Assembly (NCBI GenBank): GCA_963766365.1
Contig: CAVXZK010000010.1
Location: 5,783 to 69,782 of the forward strand
DNA length: 64,000 bases
Direction of reading: 5' to 3'
From: an uncultured beta proteobacterium
GTDB taxonomy: Bacteria; Pseudomonadota; Gammaproteobacteria; Burkholderiales; Burkholderiaceae_F
Shown one piece after another: positions 4,019-64,000 of the stretch. How positions within the stretch are numbered: the stretch's first letter is position 1; each line of letters begins with the position of its first letter. The position numbers and the translations under genes are program-made. Under the pieces are notes generated by a model. The model was not told the origin of the DNA and searched no databases. It worked only from the letters and a program-made list of their open reading frames with translations.

Positions 4019-6697
4019 TCAGCGCGACCAGGGCGGGGGGCTCATGCCCATTTTCCATTTCGAGCGCGCGCGCTCGGCCGCCACAGGATCGACCGCGTGC
4101 AATGCCGCCAGGGCAATCGAGCGGCGATCGACCTCGAAGAATGCGCGTAGCGCCGCGCGCGTATCCGAGCGGCCAAAGCCATCGGTGCCGAGCGCAACGT
4201 AACGATCGCCGATCCACGGGCGGATCAGGTCCGGCACGCTGCTGACGTAATCCGAGGCGGCGATGACCGGTGCGCCCGTCATCGGCAACTGCTGCTCGAT
4301 CCACGACGTGGCACTAGGCTCGCCGAGCCGGGCGGCGCGTTCGAGCGCCATCGCCTCGCGCCGCAGTTCGGTGAAGCTCGTGACCGAGTAGACATCCGTG
4401 GCGACGCCGAACTCCGACTCGAGCAGTTCCGCAGCGGCGAGCGCTTCGCGCAGGATCGTGCCCGCGCCGAGCAGGCGCACGCGGGACGCTCCTAGCGACG
4501 ATGCTTGCAAGCGATACAGACCGCGCAGGATGCCCTCGCGTTCGCCTTCCCGGTCGGACGGCTGGGCATAGTTCTCGTTCATCACCGTGACGTAGTAGAA
4601 CTCGTCGTGCTGCTCCGTCAGCATCCGGCGCATACCGTGCTCGACGATCACCGCGAGCTCGTAGGCGTAGCACGGGTCGTAGGCGCGGCAGTTCGGCACG
4701 GTCGAGGCGATCAGCTGGCTGGTGCCGTCCTCATGCTGCAGGCCTTCGCCCGAGAGCGTCGTGCGGCCGGCCGTCGCGCCGAGCAGGAAGCCGCGCGTGC
4801 GCGAATCCGCTGCGGCCCACAGAAGGTCGCCGACGCGCTGGAAGCCGAACATCGAATAGAAAATGTAAAAGGGCAGCATCGGCAGGCCGTTGGTGGAATA
4901 ACTGGTGCCTGCGGCAACCCACGACGCGATGGCGCCGGCTTCGTTGATTCCCTCTTCGAGGATCTGGCCGTTCTTCGCTTCCCTGTAGAAGCTGATCTGC
5001 GCGCTGTCTTCGGGTTCGTAGAGCTGCCCGAGCGGCGAATAGATGCCGACCTGGCGGAACAGGTCCGCCATCCCGAAGGTGCGCGCCTCATCGGCGATGA
5101 TCGGCACGATGCGCGGTCCCAGCGCCGGGTCCTTCAGCAGCGAGCCGAGCATGCGAACGAACGCCATCGTCGTCGACATCTCCTTGCCGTTCGCTTCGAG
5201 TGCGAAGCGTGCAAACGCTTCGGCCGCCGGTGTCGCGAGAGGGTCGCACACCGAGGAGCGGGACGGCAGATAGCCGCCAAGCTTGGCGCGGCGCGCATGC
5301 AGGTACTTCATCTCCGGGCTGTCGTCACCCGGCTTGTAGAACTCCACGTTCTCGACTTGCGCGTCGGTGAGTGGCAGGCCGAAGCGGTCGCGGAAGTCGC
5401 GCAGCCCCTCGGCGTCGAGCTTCTTCTGCTGGTGGGTCGTCATGCGCCCCTGGCCGGCCGTGCCCATGCCGTAACCCTTCTTCGTCTTGGCCAGGATCAC
5501 CGTCGGCTGGCCGCGGTGGCGCACCGCCGCGTGATAGGCCGCATGGATCTTCACCGGATCGTGCCCGCCGCGTCGCAATCGATCGATATCGTCGTCGGAC
5601 AGGTGCGCGGTCAATTGCGCCAGCTCTGGAAACTTGTTGAAGAAGTGCTCGCGATTGAACCTTCCATCGGTCGCCGACAGGGTCTGGAACTCGCCGTCGA
5701 CCGTTTCGTGGAAGGCGCGCAACAGCAGCATCTGCGTGTCGCGCGCGAACAGCGGGTCCCAGTCGCTGCCCCACAGCAGCTTGATCACGTTCCAGCCCGC
5801 ACCGGCGAAGAGCCCCTCGAGTTCCTGGATGATCGAACCGTTGCCGCGCACCGGTCCGTCGAGCCGCTGCAGGTTGCAGTTGACGACGAACACCAGGTTA
5901 TCCAGCCCTTCGCGCGCGGCGATGCTCAGCCCTGCGAGCGACTCGGGTTCGTCCATCTCGCCATCGCCGACGAACGCCCAGACCTTGCGCGCATAGGTTG
6001 GTGCCAGTCCGCGATTCTCGACGTAGCGCAGGAAGCGCGCCTGGTAGATCGCAAACAGCGGCCCCAGTCCCATCGAGCCGGTCGGGAACTGCCAGAAGTT
6101 CGGCATCAGCCAGGGGTGCGGATAGGAACTGAGCCCGGGGCCCGACGTCTCGCGGCGATAGTGATTGACCTGCTCGGCCGTCAGCCTGCCTTCGAGGAAG
6201 GCGCGCGCGTAGACGCCGGGCGCCGAATGCGGCTGGAAGTAGACGAGGTCGCCGCGCGACTCCAGCGTCTCGCCGCCGGCGCGGAAGAAGTGATTGAAGC
6301 CGACCTCGAAGAGATCCGCCGCCGACGCATAGCTGGCAATGTGACCGCCGAGTTCAGGGCTCGCCTGGTTCGCACGCACGACCATCGCCAGCGCATTCCA
6401 GCGCACCAATGCCGAAAGCCGCTGCTCGATCTCTAGGTTGCCGGGAAACGGCGCCTGCTCGCCCAGCGAGATCGTGTTCAGGTAGGGCGTGTTCAGTACC
6501 TGCGGCAACGGCACGCGCCGTGTACGCGCGTGCTGCAGCAGCTGTTTCAGCACGAAGGTCGCGCGCGCTGGTCCCTCGGCCTCGATGAGCGCGTCGAGCG
6601 CTTCGAGCCATTCGCGCGTTTCCTGCGGATCGCCGTCATCCTCGGGCAGCCGCCACGCGGCGTTGGGATTCAGCTTCGCGAGGTCGTCGAGGTTCAT
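4019..6697 (-). CDS. mdeB: homodimeric 2-oxoacid dehydrogenase E1 component (AceE family); context suggests MdeB-type 2-oxobutyrate dehydrogenase E1
   Basis: 892 aa from MNLDDLAKLNPNAAW..ETREWLEALDALIE.., full-length AceE-type E1. No E2 or E3 gene is adjacent. It lies directly downstream of a methionine gamma-lyase-like gene, with a divergent Lrp regulator, as in the Pseudomonas putida mdeAB/mdeR locus. Confidence 0.85.
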   Translation of the reverse strand: MNLDDLAKLNPNAAWRLPEDDGDPQETREWLEALDALIEAEGPARATFVLKQLLQHARTRRVPLPQVLNTPYLNTISLGEQAPFPGNLEIEQRLSALVRWNALAMVVRANQASPELGGHIASYASAADLFEVGFNHFFRAGGETLESRGDLVYFQPHSAPGVYARAFLEGRLTAEQVNHYRRETSGPGLSSYPHPWLMPNFWQFPTGSMGLGPLFAIYQARFLRYVENRGLAPTYARKVWAFVGDGEMDEPESLAGLSIAAREGLDNLVFVVNCNLQRLDGPVRGNGSIIQELEGLFAGAGWNVIKLLWGSDWDPLFARDTQMLLLRAFHETVDGEFQTLSATDGRFNREHFFNKFPELAQLTAHLSDDDIDRLRRGGHDPVKIHAAYHAAVRHRGQPTVILAKTKKGYGMGTAGQGRMTTHQQKKLDAEGLRDFRDRFGLPLTDAQVENVEFYKPGDDSPEMKYLHARRAKLGGYLPSRSSVCDPLATPAAEAFARFALEANGKEMSTTMAFVRMLGSLLKDPALGPRIVPIIADEARTFGMADLFRQVGIYSPLGQLYEPEDSAQISFYREAKNGQILEEGINEAGAIASWVAAGTSYSTNGLPMLPFYIFYSMFGFQRVGDLLWAAADSRTRGFLLGATAGRTTLSGEGLQHEDGTSQLIASTVPNCRAYDPCYAYELAVIVEHGMRRMLTEQHDEFYYVTVMNENYAQPSDREGEREGILRGLYRLQASSLGASRVRLLGAGTILREALAAAELLESEFGVATDVYSVTSFTELRREAMALERAARLGEPSATSWIEQQLPMTGAPVIAASDYVSSVPDLIRPWIGDRYVALGTDGFGRSDTRAALRAFFEVDRRSIALAALHAVDPVAAERARSKWKMGMSPPPWSR

Positions 6698-6844
6698 CGG
6701 CGCTCGGGGGGAGGTGGGTCGGCCATTATCACCCTGCGCCGCGCCGCGGCAACGAGGGCCTGCCGTGATGGATACGCCACGGGCCAGCAACGGAATGCTG
6801 GCCGGCGAGGGCAACCGATGCCGTGTGCCCCCGCGGCGGTGACT

Positions 6845-43814: not shown

Positions 43815-44193
43815 GCGTCGCTCGTGTACGCGATCGGCTGCGCCGATCGCACGTGCACTTGCTCCGATACGGTTCGCGCCCTGCGCGAACCGTTCAACAC
43901 TGATCAGTCGGCTGCACTCCGGAGCGGCCGCGCGCTTCGCCGAGTAACCAAGGCGGTTACTCCACCCCGCGACGCATCTTGCGGTGCCAGGATTGCCTTT
44001 CCCTCCTCGCCCGGCGAGGAGGGTGCAGGGAGGAGTGCGCCATTCCCTCCCGCGTGGCGGGAGGGCAGGGTAGGTGCACGGGAGTTAAAAGTCGGCGGAG
44101 TGCGCGGCCGCTCCGGAGCGCAGCCGACCAACTAATCGGAGCGAGTGCACGTGCAAGTCCTGGCAGCGCCGGGACTTGCGTACACGAGCGGCG
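43815..44193. repeat. nested-palindrome repeat element, copy B
   Basis: Homologous to 33032-33427. It exactly fills the gap between the TGA of the 43407-43814 gene and the stop (44194-44196) of the convergent kinase gene. Confidence 0.8.
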
Positions 44194-45762: not shown

Positions 45763-50357
<4,595 letters not shown>

Positions 50358-59149: not shown

Positions 59150-60681
59150 GTGCGGCGGCGGTGCAGGGCACCGCTTTGTCCGGATCGCGAGAGGCGCTCG
59201 CGTGGTTGCAGCGGACCTCCGGGTCGGGGTCGAGCGCGAAGCGGGACCTGCGGCTCGACAGCCGAGCGGTGCGCGCCGGGGATGTCTTCATTGCCGTGGC
59301 CGGCGAGACGACCGACGGACGGCGCTACCTCGGCGATGCGGTCGCCCGCGGTGCCGCGGCCGCCCTCGTGGACGCCGAAGGCTGGAGCGGTGGGGACTTT
59401 GCGGTGCCGGTAGTCGCGGTGCGCGGGCTGCGCGATGAGCTGGGCACGCTGGCGGCCGAGTACTACGGCCGCCCGAGCGACCGTCTGGTTTCGGTCGGCG
59501 TGACCGGCACGAACGGCAAGACCTCCTGCAGCCAGTGGATCGCGCAACTGCTGACTCGCGAGGGGTGGCGCTGCGCCGTTGTCGGCACGGTCGGCATCGG
59601 GTTCCCGGGCTCGCTGCAGGCGAGCGACCTGACGACGCCGGACCCGGTGTCGCTGCAGCGAGAACTGCGTCACCTGCTGGACGCCGGCGCGCAGGCGGTG
59701 GCGATGGAAGTCTCGTCGATCGGTCTCGCGCAGCGACGCGTCGACGGCATGCGATTCGAGGTGGCGCTTTTCACCAACCTGACCCGCGATCACCTTGACG
59801 TACACGGCACCATGGAGGGCTACGAGGCCGCCAAGGCGATGCTGTTCGACTGGCCCGGGCTGAGCCACGCCGTCATCAACCTGGACGATGCGGCCGGGCA
59901 GCGCATGGCCGGGCGGGCGCTGGCGCGAGGTGTCGATGTGATCGGCTACAGCGCGCAAGGCAACATGACGGCGCGACCCGTGGCTCCGCGCCTGATCGCC
60001 GAGGACATCCGCGCCACCGCCCACGGCCTGGCCTTCGAACTGCTGATCGACAAACGGCGCTTCGGCACCGAGGTGTCGCTGGTCGGACACTTCAACGTGG
60101 CCAACCTGCTTGGCGTAGTCGGAAGCTCGATCGCATGCGGCATCGCGCCCGAGACGGCCGTCGCCGCGCTGCCGGGGCTGGTACCGCCGCCCGGGCGCAT
60201 GCAGCGCGTGCCCTCGTCGACGCAGCCGCTGGTGATCATCGACTACGCGCACACGCCGGATGCGCTGGCGCAGGCGCTGGCCGCGGTACGACCCGTCGCG
60301 TGGGCGCGCGGCGGCAAACTCTGGGCGGTCTTCGGCGCCGGAGGCGACCGCGATCCGGGCAAGCGCGCACCGATGGGGGCCGCCGCCGCGGCCGCGGCCG
60401 ATGTCGTGCTCGTCACCAGTGACAACCCGCGCACCGAGGATCCGCACAGGATCATCGAGGACATAGTGCGCGGAACTGCACAAGCGCACCGCGTGTTGAT
60501 CGAGCCGGATCGTGCGCAGGCGATCGAGACGGCCGTCGTGCAGTCGGAAGCGGCCGACGTCGTGCTGATCGCCGGCAAGGGGCACGAGGACTACCAGATC
60601 ATCGGCACCGAGAAGCGGCCGTTCTCCGATCTCGAGCAGGCGCAGCGCGCGGTGCAGCGTCGTGCGGAGGGCCCGGCGTGA
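59146..60681 (+). CDS. murE: UDP-N-acetylmuramoyl-L-alanyl-D-glutamate--2,6-diaminopimelate ligase MurE
   Basis: Start at MSAAAVQGTAL.. (ATGA overlap with the ftsI stop). ..GVTGTNGKTS.. P-loop and ..DNPR.. DAP-specific motif. The track ORF from 58531 is over-extended. Confidence 0.95.
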   Translation: MSAAAVQGTALSGSREALAWLQRTSGSGSSAKRDLRLDSRAVRAGDVFIAVAGETTDGRRYLGDAVARGAAAALVDAEGWSGGDFAVPVVAVRGLRDELGTLAAEYYGRPSDRLVSVGVTGTNGKTSCSQWIAQLLTREGWRCAVVGTVGIGFPGSLQASDLTTPDPVSLQRELRHLLDAGAQAVAMEVSSIGLAQRRVDGMRFEVALFTNLTRDHLDVHGTMEGYEAAKAMLFDWPGLSHAVINLDDAAGQRMAGRALARGVDVIGYSAQGNMTARPVAPRLIAEDIRATAHGLAFELLIDKRRFGTEVSLVGHFNVANLLGVVGSSIACGIAPETAVAALPGLVPPPGRMQRVPSSTQPLVIIDYAHTPDALAQALAAVRPVAWARGGKLWAVFGAGGDRDPGKRAPMGAAAAAAADVVLVTSDNPRTEDPHRIIEDIVRGTAQAHRVLIEPDRAQAIETAVVQSEAADVVLIAGKGHEDYQIIGTEKRPFSDLEQAQRAVQRRAEGPA

Positions 60682-62066
60682 GCCTGATGAGCGTCGCCGA
60701 ACTGGCGGCCGCCGTATCGGCCCAAGGCATGCGGGGCAACGGCAGCGTCGTGTTCTCGAGCGTCTCGACGGATACGCGCACGCTGGCGCCGGGCGCGCTG
60801 TTCGTCGCGCTGCGGGGCGAGCGCTTCGATGGACACGACTACACGAGCGCCGCTGTGGAGCGTGGCGCCGTCGCGCTGCTGGTGGAGCGACCCATCGAGA
60901 ATGACGTGCCGCAGGTGCTCGTCGCCGATGCCAAGCGTGCACTCGGCGTCGGCGCTGCACTGTGGCGCGCGCGTTTCGCGCTGCCGGTCATCGCCGTGGC
61001 CGGCAGCAATGGCAAAACCACGGTCACGCAGATGATCGCGTCGATCCTGGCGCAGGCCTACGGCGAGAAGCAGCGCCTCGCGACGCGCGGCAACCTTAAC
61101 AACGACATCGGCGTGCCGCTGATGCTTTGGCAGCTCACGAAGCAGCACAAGGCCGCGGTCTTCGAGCTCGGAATGAACCACCCGGGCGAAATCGCCACCC
61201 TCGCCGAGCTGGTGCGACCCACGGTCGCGCTCGTCAATAACGCACAGCGCGAGCACCAGGAGTTCATGCAGTCGATCGAGGCGACGGCGTACGAGAACGG
61301 CGAGGTGATCGCCGCCCTGCCGCTTTCCGAGGCGGGGGTCGCGGTGTTCCCAGCCGATGACGCCTGTGCCGCCATTTGGCGCGCCCTCGCCGGCACGCGG
61401 CGGGTCATCGATTTCGCGCTGGAGGCCTACGCAGTCGTCACCGCGACGTACGAGTTGAAGCCCGACGGCGCTCGCGTGTCGATGGCCACGCCAGCGGGCG
61501 TGGTCGCCGCCAACCTCGGGGTCACTGGAGTGCACAACGTGCGCAACGCGCTGGCGGCGACCGCGTGCGCGCTGGCGATCGGCGTGCCGCCGCGTGCGAT
61601 CGGCGCCGGCCTCGAGGCGTTCCGGCCGGTCGGCGGGCGCGGCGCTCGGCTGCGTACCCGGTCCGGCGCCGCGCTGATCGACGATAGCTACAACGCGAAC
61701 CCCGACTCGGTCCGTGCAGCGATCGAACTGCTGGCGGGCTATGGTCATCCGCGCGTGCTCGTGCTCGGCGACATGGGCGAGGTCGGCGAACGAGGTGCCG
61801 AATTTCATCGCGAGATCGGCGAGTACGCCCGCACCCGGCAGATCGATGCCCTCTATGCGATCGGCTCCCTGACGCCGGAAGCCGTGGCGGCCTTCGGCGG
61901 CGGCACTCACTTCAACGATGTCGATTCGCTGATCGCCGCGTTGTCCTCCCGGCTGGAGCCCACCGCCACCGTGCTCATCAAGGGCTCGCGCTTCATGCGG
62001 ATGGAGCGCGTCGTGCACGCGCTGGCAGAACCGTCGACCGATCCGGCTGTCGCGGGAGTTCACTGA
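60678..62066 (+). CDS. murF: UDP-N-acetylmuramoyl-tripeptide--D-alanyl-D-alanine ligase MurF
   Basis: 462 aa, ..AVAGSNGKTTV.. P-loop and Mur ligase layout. GTGA overlap with the murE stop. Confidence 0.95.
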   Translation: MSLMSVAELAAAVSAQGMRGNGSVVFSSVSTDTRTLAPGALFVALRGERFDGHDYTSAAVERGAVALLVERPIENDVPQVLVADAKRALGVGAALWRARFALPVIAVAGSNGKTTVTQMIASILAQAYGEKQRLATRGNLNNDIGVPLMLWQLTKQHKAAVFELGMNHPGEIATLAELVRPTVALVNNAQREHQEFMQSIEATAYENGEVIAALPLSEAGVAVFPADDACAAIWRALAGTRRVIDFALEAYAVVTATYELKPDGARVSMATPAGVVAANLGVTGVHNVRNALAATACALAIGVPPRAIGAGLEAFRPVGGRGARLRTRSGAALIDDSYNANPDSVRAAIELLAGYGHPRVLVLGDMGEVGERGAEFHREIGEYARTRQIDALYAIGSLTPEAVAAFGGGTHFNDVDSLIAALSSRLEPTATVLIKGSRFMRMERVVHALAEPSTDPAVAGVH

Positions 62067-63221
62067 ATGCTGCTTGAACTGTTCGACTGGCTGGCGCGAG
62101 ACATCCGGGCGTTCAACGTCTTCTCGTACCTGACGTTGCGCGCCGTGCTCGCCGCCGGCACGGCGCTGGTGATCGGGCTTGCCGCGGGACCCTGGGTGAT
62201 TCGCAAGCTGACCGAACTGAAGATCGGCCAGGCCGTGCGCAACGACGGTCCGCAGACACACCTCGCCAAGACCGGCACGCCGACGATGGGCGGCGCGCTG
62301 ATCCTGATCTCGATCGGCATCACGACGCTGCTGTGGGCGGATCTGTCCAACCGCTTCATCTGGGTCGTGCTGATTGTGACGGTGGGCTTCGGGTGGATCG
62401 GCTGGGTCGACGACTACCGCAAGGTCGTGCACCGGAATCCCAAGGGCATGAGCGCCAGGGAAAAGTACTTCTGGCAGTCGCTGATCGGCCTGGTCGCGGC
62501 GTTCTACCTCGCCTTCGCGATCGCGGCGCCGTCGACCGACCGGATCTGGGACCTGATGCTGCTGTGGGTGCAGCAGGGTTTCTACATCGATCTGCCGCCA
62601 CGCTCCGACCTGCTGGTGCCGTTCTTCAAGAACGTCGCCTATCCGCTCGGCGTGTTCGGCTTCGTCGTGCTCTCCTACCTCGTCATCGTCGGCACCAGCA
62701 ATGCGGTCAACCTGACGGACGGACTCGACGGGCTCGCGATCATGCCGACGGTAATGATCGGTGCCGCGCTCGGGGTGTTCGCCTATGTCGTGGGCCGGGC
62801 GGATTTCGCGCGTTACCTGCTGTTCCCGTACATCCCCGGTGCGGGTGAACTCGTGATCATCTGTGGCGCGATCGCCGGCGCGGGCCTGGCCTTCCTCTGG
62901 TTCAACGCCTACCCGGCCGAAGTCTTCATGGGCGATGTCGGCGCGCTGGCACTCGGCGGAGCGCTCGGCACGATCGCCGTCATCACGCGGCAAGAGATCG
63001 TGCTCTTCATCATGGGCGGCGTGTTCGTAGTCGAGACGGTCTCCGTGATGATGCAGGTGGCCTTCTTCAAGTGGACCAAGGGCCGGCGCATCTTCCGCAT
63101 GGCACCGCTGCACCACCACTTCGAACTCTCGGGATGGAAGGAGACGCAGGTCGTCGTGCGGTTCTGGATCATCAGCATGATGCTGGTGCTCGTAGGTCTC
63201 TCCACGCTGAAGATCCGATGA
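62067..63221 (+). CDS. mraY: phospho-N-acetylmuramoyl-pentapeptide transferase MraY
   Basis: 384 aa, ..GTPTMGG.., ..[13 protein letters not shown].., ..MAPLHHHFE.., ending ..[21 protein letters not shown]. Confidence 0.95.
63155..63221 (+). repeat. direct repeat, copy 1 (authentic 3' end of mraY)
   Basis: The 66-67 nt segment c-gtgcggttctggatcatcagcatgatgctggtgctCgtaggtctCtccacgctgaagatccgAtga is repeated at 63313-63379 with 3 mismatches. Confidence 0.9.
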
Positions 63222-63379
63222 GCGAAGTCAAGCACGACGGGTGCGGCTGGACGAGGCTCATGCGCGCAGCGCGTGAAGCGAGCGCTGCGAGCGGCCGAGG
63301 CCAGACCTCACCCGTGCGGTTCTGGATCATCAGCATGATGCTGGTGCTGGTAGGTCTTTCCACGCTGAAGATCCGCTGA
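63218..63379 (+). CDS. candidate 53-aa single-pass membrane micro-protein, coupled to both mraY and murD
   Basis: The ATG overlaps the mraY stop (ATGA at 63218-63221) and the TGA overlaps the murD ATG (TGATG at 63377-63381). The product is [32 protein letters not shown] + [21 protein letters not shown]. Its last 21 residues are identical to the MraY C-terminal helix. There is no independent SD, and translation is unproven. Confidence 0.35.
63313..63379 (+). repeat. direct repeat, copy 2 (duplicated mraY 3' end abutting murD)
   Basis: It lies 158 nt downstream of copy 1. The three differences (CTC/CTG, CTC/CTT, CGA/CGC) are all synonymous third-codon positions in the MraY frame. Confidence 0.9.
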
Positions 63380-64000
63380 TGGCGCAGGCACTCGTCCTCG
63401 GACTCGGCGACAGCGGGCTCGCGATCGCGCTCTGGCTGGCACGGCAGGGCTGGTCGCTGCGCGTGGCGGATACGCGCGCAGCGCCGCCGCAGCTCGACGC
63501 GCTGCGCTCCCATGTGCCGGCGGCCGAGTTCGTCGGCGGTCCGTTCACGGAAGCTTTGCTGGATGGCGTCGAACTCGTGGCGATCTCGCCCGGCCTGTCG
63601 CCGACGCACTCGGTGGCCGCTCCGCTGATGAAGGCGGCGAAGGCACGGGGCGTCGAGGTCGTTGGTGAAATCGAGCTCTTCGCGCGCGAGCTTGCGCGGC
63701 TGAAGCAGGACCAGGGCTATGCCCCGCGCGTGCTCGGCATCACCGGTACCAACGGCAAGACGACAACGACGCGGCTCGTCGGCATGCTGGTCGAGCGCTG
63801 CGGACAGCGTGTCGCCGTCGCCGGCAACATTGCACCGGCCGCGCTCGATGAACTGGCCGCGCGGCTCGACGCAGGAGACCTGCCGGAAGTCTGGGTGCTC
63901 GAACTCTCGAGCTTCCAGTTGCAGACGACGGCGAGCCTCGCGTGTGACGCGGCGGCCGCGCTGAACCTGACTCAGGACCATCTTGACTGGCACGGGACGA
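63379..64000 (+). CDS. murD: UDP-N-acetylmuramoylalanine--D-glutamate ligase MurD (5' part, runs off window end)
   Basis: My own translation is [62 protein letters not shown]... It is absent from the track because no stop lies in the window. Confidence 0.9.

Follow-up and report, generated by a model that had tools for sequence, protein, structure and literature searches.

The window analysed here, a 64,000-nucleotide (64-kb) stretch of contig CAVXZK010000010.1 from an uncultured beta proteobacterium, raises the question of how an extra small open reading frame (ORF) comes to lie between mraY and murD, two genes of the dcw cluster, and how the junction of these genes can function with it. The first-pass annotation of the window had noticed that the 3' end of mraY is duplicated at this place and that a 53-codon ORF runs between the two copies into murD. 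We find that the sequence separating the copies belongs to a dispersed family of structured, palindromic elements and propose, with a probability of about 60%, that the element is compatible with translation and is tolerated in the dcw operon through duplication of the tail of the upstream gene together with a short relay ORF, which would pass ribosomes on to murD.

The duplication itself is real. Positions 63155-63221 of the window occur again at 63313-63379, the 67-nucleotide copies being identical at 64 of 67 positions and separated by 91 nucleotides in which the relay ORF is the only ORF, and a scan of the whole window revealed no other long near-identical local direct repeat except domain repeats within proteins. 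The mismatches between the copies (CTC/CTG at 63191/63349, CTC/CTT at 63200/63358 and CGA/CGC at 63218/63376) are, as they had been read before, all three synonymous third positions in the MraY frame, which for the window alone is marginally informative, i.e., weak evidence of constraint. Through the third mismatch the CGC-TGA-TG of the murD junction becomes CG-ATG-A, the start of the small ORF, in copy 1. This ORF (63218-63379) consists of 53 codons, of which a 32-amino acid head is followed by a 21-amino acid copy of the MraY tail, read in the MraY frame across copy 2. Both of its ends are stop/start overlaps of canonical form, a 4-nucleotide one with mraY upstream (ATGA, 63218-63221) and a 1-nucleotide one downstream, where the murD ATG (63378) overlaps the small-ORF stop (TGATG, 63377-63381). 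The earlier suggestions that the small ORF is coupled at both ends and that copy 2 retains the native TGATG junction of murD are thereby borne out, as is the view that an additional coupled ORF is unusual here, mraY and murD overlapping directly in 64 of 80 related reference genomes.

Such an arrangement might have been produced by an assembly error, by a join of mixed strains, or by a one-off recombination or integration scar bringing two mraY alleles together, as the first-pass annotation had considered. The source is metagenomic and tandem repeats do break assemblies; the L204 contig, for instance, ends inside a unit. However, the same structure is found in a Joint Genome Institute (JGI) contig of the same species (L081/L088; 99.13% identity across 4.9 kb), with one single-nucleotide polymorphism in copy 1 and one in the spacer, in a European Nucleotide Archive (ENA) contig (L202), whose 53-amino acid product is identical to that of the window, and, as a strain variant with V->A and L->P in copy 2, in three further JGI samples (L207-L209). 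The presence of the same architecture in other assemblies of the species rules out an artefact of a single assembly or of mixed strains. The architecture is identical, at ~99% identity, in assemblies made independently from different samples at different centres, and more than 20 lineages repeat it with a homologous, covarying spacer; there is no integrase, the copies are only 91 nucleotides apart, and lineage-specific residues are common to both of them, which argues against a foreign allele. The artefact, mixed-strain or one-off scar reading is already contradicted by this recurrence in many lineages and at a second junction, and we regard its probability as negligible.

The recurrence was established by two scans, one of 80 related genomes by MraY similarity and the other of metagenomes for two copies of TTCTGGATCRTC lying 96-156 nucleotides apart. 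Both scans taken together, the same mraY-murD architecture is present in more than 20 betaproteobacterial lineages; it was seen in 17 metagenome loci, in the genome loci L056 and L058 and in the relatives of the window L203-L209, and loci of this mraY type include L056, L058, L107, L118, L119, L123, L135, L146, L147, L151, L160, L163, L170, L182, L184, L190 and L200. A covariance model found the element at the ftsW-murG junction of at least seven lineages as well (L001, L014, L025, L028, L046, L069, L184 and L203/L205), flanked by a duplicate of the last 7-12 FtsW codons and with a 5' arm that is the reverse complement of the FtsW tail, again from GAAAAYC (E-N-R). In L184 and L203 both junctions carry an element, and the two elements of L203 share a derived compensatory variant, CTCAY...GTGAAG in place of CTAAC...GTTAAG, which is also the variant of the window copy.

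The element is encountered outside the dcw cluster, too. In one phage-like contig (L210) a DUF6511 gene located just after a helicase gene has the element as its N-terminus. In another (L213, 9332-9411) its core lies in frame inside a DUF6441 (PF20039) gene, where it replaces ~60 nucleotides relative to the empty allele L215:697-890, and more than 1,000 homologues of this gene are without the core. The L213 codons just upstream of the core have changed from D-N-T-A to E-N-R-R and are now a perfect inverted repeat of the native L-R-R-F codons. One more copy (L221:2059-2147) occupies the 3' untranslated region (UTR) of an rpoD-like gene; a small hairpin enclosing the stop codon precedes it, an intrinsic terminator and a tRNA gene follow it, and the contig, labelled viral, looks like host DNA at the element site. 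Every copy is co-oriented with transcription, and the element is usually embedded in translated sequence, the L221 copy being the exception. Given its sites at mraY-murD, at ftsW-murG, in phage contigs and in the rpoD 3' UTR, the family is dispersed and not dcw-specific. BLAST of the element core against 72,556 plasmids and a search of viral contigs with the type-2 core pattern gave no match, and the viral pattern matches L211, L212 and L214, as well as 27 of the 28 new loci of a later scan, were rejected as chance or coding matches. A protein search with the concatenated head peptides retrieved only five small ORFs, all of the mraY type, and therefore no new contexts.

Among relatives the element has a patchy distribution and is present in one to three tandem units. 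Tandem arrays with three tails occur in L146, L163, L203 and L206, and the units of an array are identical; L203:3378-3765 and 6503-6717 and L206:3381-3762 are two-unit tandem arrays. The copy number differs between samples of one species (L203 versus L205), and a 91-amino acid protein from a 119.6-kb JGI contig (P0001) contains two tandem elements within one ORF, with the middle tail copy reduced to VRFW. L135 is homogenised relative to L123, i.e., exchange between copies is visible.

The 92-nucleotide spacer that the first-pass annotation had called unrelated turned out to be the conserved part of the locus, structured and with strong covariation. The element measures ~95 nucleotides and has the form of a long stem with a three-way junction at its tip, a core of ~55-60 nucleotides and context-dependent arms. 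The spacers are homologous across lineages and share GCGCAC-GAC-..GGTTyGG-CGArGGCTAAC-[hairpin]-GTTAAG-[hairpin]-GGCCGArrCCArAAyC.., after which comes GTGCGC, part of copy 2. The second hairpin is absent from a second subtype. Folded singly, the sequences adopt a common shape, with z-scores between -3.4 and -6.2 (-52.7 kcal/mol and z = -4.5 for the window copy). When 18 distinct copies are aligned with guidance from the model, 94% of the cells are paired, compensatory changes occur in 33 of 35 pairs, and the covariation score is 0.518 versus 0.158 in shuffles (0/500) and 0.03-0.07 with slid partners, these figures being somewhat inflated because the alignment was fitted to the structure. The compensatory changes in hairpin P2 can be read by hand, independently of the structure-fitted alignment: AACTTGCGC/GCGCAAGTT, AACCGGCG/CGCCGGTT, AATGCGC/GCGCGTT and CACGTGC/GCACGT. 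The nucleotides GGCTAAC, GTTAAG and a GAA/GAA loop are conserved and unpaired.

The covariance model (R2) matches positions 63229-63322 of the window with 46.2 bits (E = 1.9e-8), and this is the single copy of the element in the 64 kb; a weak match on the minus strand (44142-44186, 24.6 bits) is a GC-rich intergenic hairpin of the ordinary terminator-like kind and was discarded. Rfam 15 gave no match in the window spacer even at E <= 10 and none at E <= 1 in five other element loci, and in the literature we found no description of structured or palindromic elements near mraY, murD or ftsW, of coupling with target duplication, or of betaproteobacterial dcw RNA motifs, so that the element family appears to be previously undescribed. 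Integron attC, dif/Xer site, hammerhead, tRNA-like and diversity-generating retroelement readings were dismissed, their defining boxes or arrangements being absent from the sequence.

The way in which the arms of the element relate to their surroundings is peculiar. The homology between the copies reaches ~15 nucleotides further upstream in a weaker form, GAGACGCAGGTCGTC of mraY (63141-63154) corresponding to the diverged 63301-63312 (CCAGACCTCACC). The duplicated segment truly starts, then, ~15 nucleotides before the 67-nucleotide repeat, at the mraY codons K-E-(N/T)-Q with the motif GA(R)A(A/C)NC, which is common to the insertion contexts in mraY, ftsW and phage genes. On the side of copy 2, CCA(R)A(A/C)NC (CCAGACCTCACC in the window) tracks the host's own mraY in all lineages, and the stretch from this motif to GTGCGC is diverged. 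The 5' arm of the element repeats, in inverted orientation, the beginning of the duplicated segment, which means that the outer stem is built from target-derived sequence around the core; in the window, GGGTGCGGCTGG of the 5' arm pairs with 63302-63313. The direct duplication comprises the last 21-27 codons (67-84 nucleotides) of mraY and ~22-36 nucleotides of ftsW. The outer arms are context-specific and copied from the target, and are not fixed terminal inverted repeats with 2-10 bp target-site duplications.

In every lineage of the mraY type an ATG is situated within -3 to +7 nucleotides of the mraY stop (ATGA, TGATG or a few nucleotides downstream), and in all of them this ATG is in frame with copy 2 with no intervening stop. 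The ORF stays open even though hairpin indels put the head into different frames with respect to the conserved motif ('..SAKANL..' versus '..RARLTG..'); the conserved GCTAAC and GTTAAG boxes each contain a TAA in one frame. In L203 a chain leads from ftsW through two successive ORFs to murG, each link being ATGA. Overlaps of the ATGA and TGATG kind are experimentally validated sites of termination-reinitiation with strict coupling in bacteria (PMC6728339), and we therefore read the 53-codon ORF primarily as a putative translational relay.

Among the 80 genomes, the mraY-murD gap is at least 75 nucleotides in nine (L001, L002, L006, L052, L055, L056, L058, L071 and that of the window), and in nine of the nine it is bridged by an ORF from the mraY stop to the murD start; the element is present in some of them, not in all. 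Expanded junctions with unrelated spacers (L001:4152-4216, L002:4152-4215, L006:4152-4255, L071:4149-4360 and L052:4167-4288) have bridging ORFs of 18-62 codons, and the L052 spacer contains a different inverted repeat. The 64-nucleotide mraY-murD spacers of L001 and L002 were considered as decayed elements, a claim that we dropped since their homology to the window spacer is unconvincing. In the species of the window itself, beyond the window end (L081:7051-7114), a 58-nucleotide ftsW-murG spacer is bridged by a 21-codon ATGA...ATGA ORF and has neither a tail duplication nor an element match; a relay ORF is thus possible where the element is absent. L055 retains both the ORF and the copied tail, with eight synonymous changes and one non-synonymous change, and is without the structured core.

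Several peculiarities of gene organisation and annotation were observed at these junctions. In L107, L163 and L182 extra repetitive sequence lies between copy 2 and murD and the relay ORF does not abut murD; the repeats 3' of copy 2 are GTGAAGG four times over in L107 and a weak third element-like match in L163 (8066-8168). Gene calls in L081 leave 146 nucleotides between the murD stop and the ftsW start (5800-5947) with the frame open across them, from which it follows that ftsW probably starts earlier. The small ORFs P0015, P0017 and P0019-P0021 are named UDP-N-acetylmuramyl pentapeptide phosphotransferase (MraY) in the source annotation, an artefact that arises because they carry the copied tail.

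We propose that the features described above fit together in the following way. The inverted 5' arm and the copied tail would let the transcript, or single-stranded DNA, fold into the long stem capped by the three-way junction. Copy 1 of the tail with its stop would leave MraY intact, while the relay ORF would start on the mraY stop (ATGA), be translated through the element and end on the re-created native TGATG, where ribosomes would be handed to murD by termination-reinitiation. The insertion would be tolerated in an essential coupled operon because MraY remains intact and the relay ORF keeps murD coupled. The 53-amino acid product, a basic head joined to a copy of transmembrane helix 10 (TM10) of MraY, would most likely be a by-product, as the heads are not conserved between subfamilies and copy 2 of natural strains contains V->A, L->P, F->L and W->R. 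The role of the ORF would in this case be that of a relay and not of a peptide source, and the element would presumably have reached its sites by some kind of insertion.

The pattern of divergence between the copies is the part of the data that such a proposal must confront. In 18 lineages, copy 1 and copy 2 differ by ~111 synonymous versus ~5 amino acid changes (ratio of non-synonymous to synonymous divergence, pN/pS, ~0.05; P ~1e-47 versus a neutral mix). The idea that copy 2 remains under coding constraint, raised by the first-pass annotation on the basis of the three mismatches of the window, is thus upheld across the family and only weakly so in the species of the window, given V->A and L->P in L207-L209; within the clade of the window L206 has F->L and W->R in copy 2 as well, and several 53-amino acid homologues have one or two substitutions in the tail. 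The copied tail of L046, which is not in the frame of the ORF opening at the ftsW stop, nevertheless shows five synonymous and no non-synonymous changes. Polarisation of the substitutions by means of element-free relatives gave no result because the nearest of these are ~80-90% identical and their synonymous sites are too diverged. The constraint on the copied tail may reflect a function of the peptide, a use of copy 2 through recoding, or 'proxy' selection, all of which are possible. By proxy selection we mean that defects of copy 2 would reach an essential gene through gene conversion or deletion events between the copies, a hazard that would also favour synonymous divergence of the copies. 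In other words, purifying selection may act on the copied tail in an indirect way.

A number of observations weigh against the relay proposal. Judging from the substitution pattern, the copied tail is under strong peptide-level purifying selection across lineages, which a pure relay role does not predict: in L170, 12 of 13 codons of the 3' half differ, all synonymously, and a rare Cys is found in both copies; in the ftsW-type copy of L184, 9 of 10 codons differ, again all synonymously; and L058, which was found without pattern bias, has seven synonymous and zero non-synonymous changes. The bias referred to is that of the metagenome scan, which demanded TTCTGGATCRTC in both copies and so fixed four of the 21 codons. 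Proxy selection is our own inference, and the translation of 63218-63379 and its coupling to murD are likewise deduced from the arrangement of codons. In L046 and L014 the ORF from the ftsW stop is out of frame with the copied tail. The conserved three-way junction and the conserved unpaired bases suggest that the element has a function of its own, in RNA regulation or mobility, which the relay model leaves unexplained. Finally, we know of no insertion mechanism that would duplicate 30-90 nucleotides of the target and at the same time copy the beginning of that stretch in inverted orientation.

It is conceivable that the locus contains a cis-acting regulatory RNA, be it a switch, a processing site or a stability element, which would adjust the expression of murD and of the dcw genes after it, or set how much membrane enzyme is made relative to cytoplasmic enzyme; the 5' arm would toggle between pairing with copy 1 and with copy 2 in response to mraY translation. 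The covariation and the conserved unpaired nucleotides, the fixed orientation to transcription in every context, the complementarity of the 5' arm to the beginning of either copy, that of copy 1 being mraY sequence, and the location of both dcw sites between a membrane-protein gene (5') and a cytoplasmic-enzyme gene (3') all speak for such a role. Its occurrence inside phage genes and in the rpoD 3' UTR, however, shows that the function is not dcw-specific, the element is patchy among relatives and varies from one to three tandem units, and the G-U pairs (20) are not in excess over A-C mismatches (16), i.e., there is no strand-specific RNA signature. A promoter and terminator scan predicted neither, and no Rfam family matches. 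We consider the regulatory RNA a tentative alternative, clearly less probable than the relay. Slightly less likely still is a functional micro-protein whose C-terminus must match that of the upstream membrane protein (TM10 of MraY, the cytoplasmic tail of FtsW) and which would act as a decoy, partner or assembly factor for that protein or for its interactors. Here the tail conserved at the peptide level while synonymous sites diverge up to saturation, the lineage-specific residues present in both copies, the retention of the ORF and tail copy by L055 without the structured core, and a basic head with a hydrophobic helix, which would fit an N-in topology like that of TM10, are on the favourable side; MraY has ten transmembrane helices and forms a dimer (PMC4790310). 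Yet the heads are unconserved and their reading frame shifts between lineages, drastic substitutions (L->P, W->R, V->A) occur naturally, and the L046 tail copy diverges synonymously even though it is out of frame with the coupled ORF; no support was found for the peptide among protein families or in the literature. Moreover, a transmembrane helix is what has been copied at mraY-murD, but at ftsW-murG it is a short cytoplasmic tail, which leaves no single role at the protein level apparent. The notion that a free MraY helix could act as a decoy, which goes back to a speculation of the first-pass annotation that such a helix might associate with MraY, is therefore one of several possible readings: the tail copied at ftsW-murG is cytoplasmic and not a helix, and the common denominator is the tail of the upstream gene rather than a transmembrane segment.

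Recoding, in which some ribosomes or transcripts would skip from copy 1 to copy 2 by translational bypass or RNA excision and copy 2 would sometimes be the real MraY tail, has the merit of accounting for the peptide constraint that copy 2 shows even in L046, whose coupled ORF is in another frame, and for a compact fold in which the end of copy 1 comes to lie beside the start of copy 2. But it needs neither the conserved start codon of the relay ORF nor its open frame, signatures of a ribozyme or an intron are absent, as are Rfam matches, and copy 2 carries disruptive changes in natural strains. The bypass in T4 gene 60 spans 50 nucleotides, and we are aware of no precedent for a ribosome hop of ~160 nucleotides; recoding seems to us very improbable. 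A different question is whether the element is more than a passenger, a suggestion that we make with reserve and think doubtful. On one reading it would be a self-building mobile element whose insertion chemistry copies 30-90 nucleotides of the target directly and the first 10-20 nucleotides in inverted form, thereby producing its own closing stem and its own relay ORF; on the other it would be a regulatory module of the cell-wall operon, in which the structured RNA and a micro-protein with the exact C-terminus of MraY (or FtsW) jointly act on lipid I/II synthesis.

Compared with known systems, a dispersed family residing mostly in translated sequence is most reminiscent of the Rickettsia palindromic elements (RPEs), which are characterised in PMC10969869 (citing Ogata et al. 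2000, 2002) as palindromic modules of ~100-150 nucleotides that are inserted in translated regions and read in frame. Our element is likewise always inside an ORF at dcw junctions, is in frame in the L213 phage gene and forms an ORF N-terminus in L210. In contrast to RPEs, it has a three-way-junction core and context-specific arms, and at operon junctions it is accompanied by a 30-90-nucleotide duplication of the upstream tail with an inverted copy of its start, which is not known from RPEs; no sequence relation is shown and the host clade is different. Repeats of the miniature inverted-repeat transposable element (MITE) and repetitive extragenic palindrome (REP) types (ERIC, Correia, REP/BIME) are likewise small, structured, non-autonomous and transcribed, and fold in mRNA, where they can affect processing or stability (PMC10969869). 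Like them, the element occurs at unrelated genomic locations, but they have fixed terminal inverted repeats, target duplications of a few bp and many copies per genome, whereas our element has target-copied arms, a duplication longer by a factor of 10-40 and one copy in 64 kb, and all its copies are co-oriented with transcription.

In the case of termination-reinitiation, the stop/start overlaps at both ends of the 53-codon ORF are of the known kind and general across the element family; the known cases couple two real genes, whereas the putative relay here is a short ORF of no other apparent role, and tandem units would form relay chains. In integrative elements a direct repeat of the target 3' end (attL/attR) flanks the insert and leaves the upstream gene intact. 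The present arrangement differs in having no recombinase, no cargo, only ~30-100 nucleotides between the repeats, a target-dependent repeat length and an inverted copy of the repeat start. A diversity-generating retroelement with template and variable repeats (TR/VR), which would call for a reverse transcriptase in the neighbourhood and for mismatches only at adenines of the template repeat, was rejected in view of the mismatch bases of copy 2 (G, T, C) and of the neighbours murF, murD and ftsW. Protein E of phiX174 acts with SlyD at TM9 of MraY and not at TM10 (PMC4790310). With this protein and other small membrane-protein modulators the locus shares a predicted single-pass peptide of ~50 amino acids encoded beside its possible target; no homology links protein E to the 53-amino acid product. 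Nor do we know of any regulator that is a literal copy of its neighbour's helix. We conclude that the closest kinds are palindromic elements of the RPE/MITE type and termination-reinitiation coupling, and that the long tail duplication, the target-copied arms and the relay ORF are new features.

The coordinates of the features at the junction are collected in the table. Elsewhere in the window, two pairs of diverged direct repeats 422 nucleotides apart (49083-49858) resemble tandem homologous domains in one coding region.

Features of the mraY-murD junction, in positions of the window
Feature	Position	Strand	Basis
murF	60678-62066	+	
mraY, 384 codons + TGA, intact	62067-63221	+	ORF list; 72-96% amino acid identity to MraY of 80 genomes; Pfam Glycos_transf_4 on identical product
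Left extension of duplicated segment, GAGACGCAGGTCGTC, E-T-Q-V-V codons, GA(R)A(A/C)NC motif	63141-63154	+	
Repeat copy 1: last 21 mraY codons (end of cytoplasmic loop 5 + TM10) + stop; CGATGA = relay-ORF start	63155-63221	+	
Relay ORF (putative), 53 codons + TGA	63218-63379	+	called as gene in JGI and ENA contigs; 53-amino acid homologues 68-94% identity
Structured element: long stem closed by pairing with first copy-2 bases, internal-loop region, inner hairpins	63229-63322	+	model match, fold, family covariation
Outer stem 5' arm; GCACGAC 63232-63238 = reverse complement of mraY GTCGTGC 63153-63159	63232-63250	+	
Outer stem 3' arm: diverged copy of mraY 63141-63154 + first copy-2 codons GTGCGG	63301-63319	+	helices 1 and 2 of family covariation
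Repeat copy 2: MraY-tail duplicate = C-terminal 21 relay-ORF codons; native TGATG murD junction kept	63313-63379	+	
murD 5' part, runs off window	63378-64000	+	MurD-like_N, Mur_ligase_M on 495-amino acid product in L081

The dcw cluster is among the most conserved and tightly packed gene strings of bacteria, and yet it hosts a foreign structured module, the insertion of which would be made safe by the duplication of the upstream tail and by a relay ORF that restores the native stop/start junction. The element family appears to be new and has very clear covariation. It also explains a class of metagenome 'hypothetical proteins' of 40-55 amino acids, some of which are mislabelled as MraY fragments. 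Identical peptides written in maximally different codons allow a direct test of whether the tail copy is functional or whether selection acts 'by proxy' on partial duplicates, and the element provides a natural, recurrent test bed for how far the expression of murD and murG depends on termination-reinitiation.

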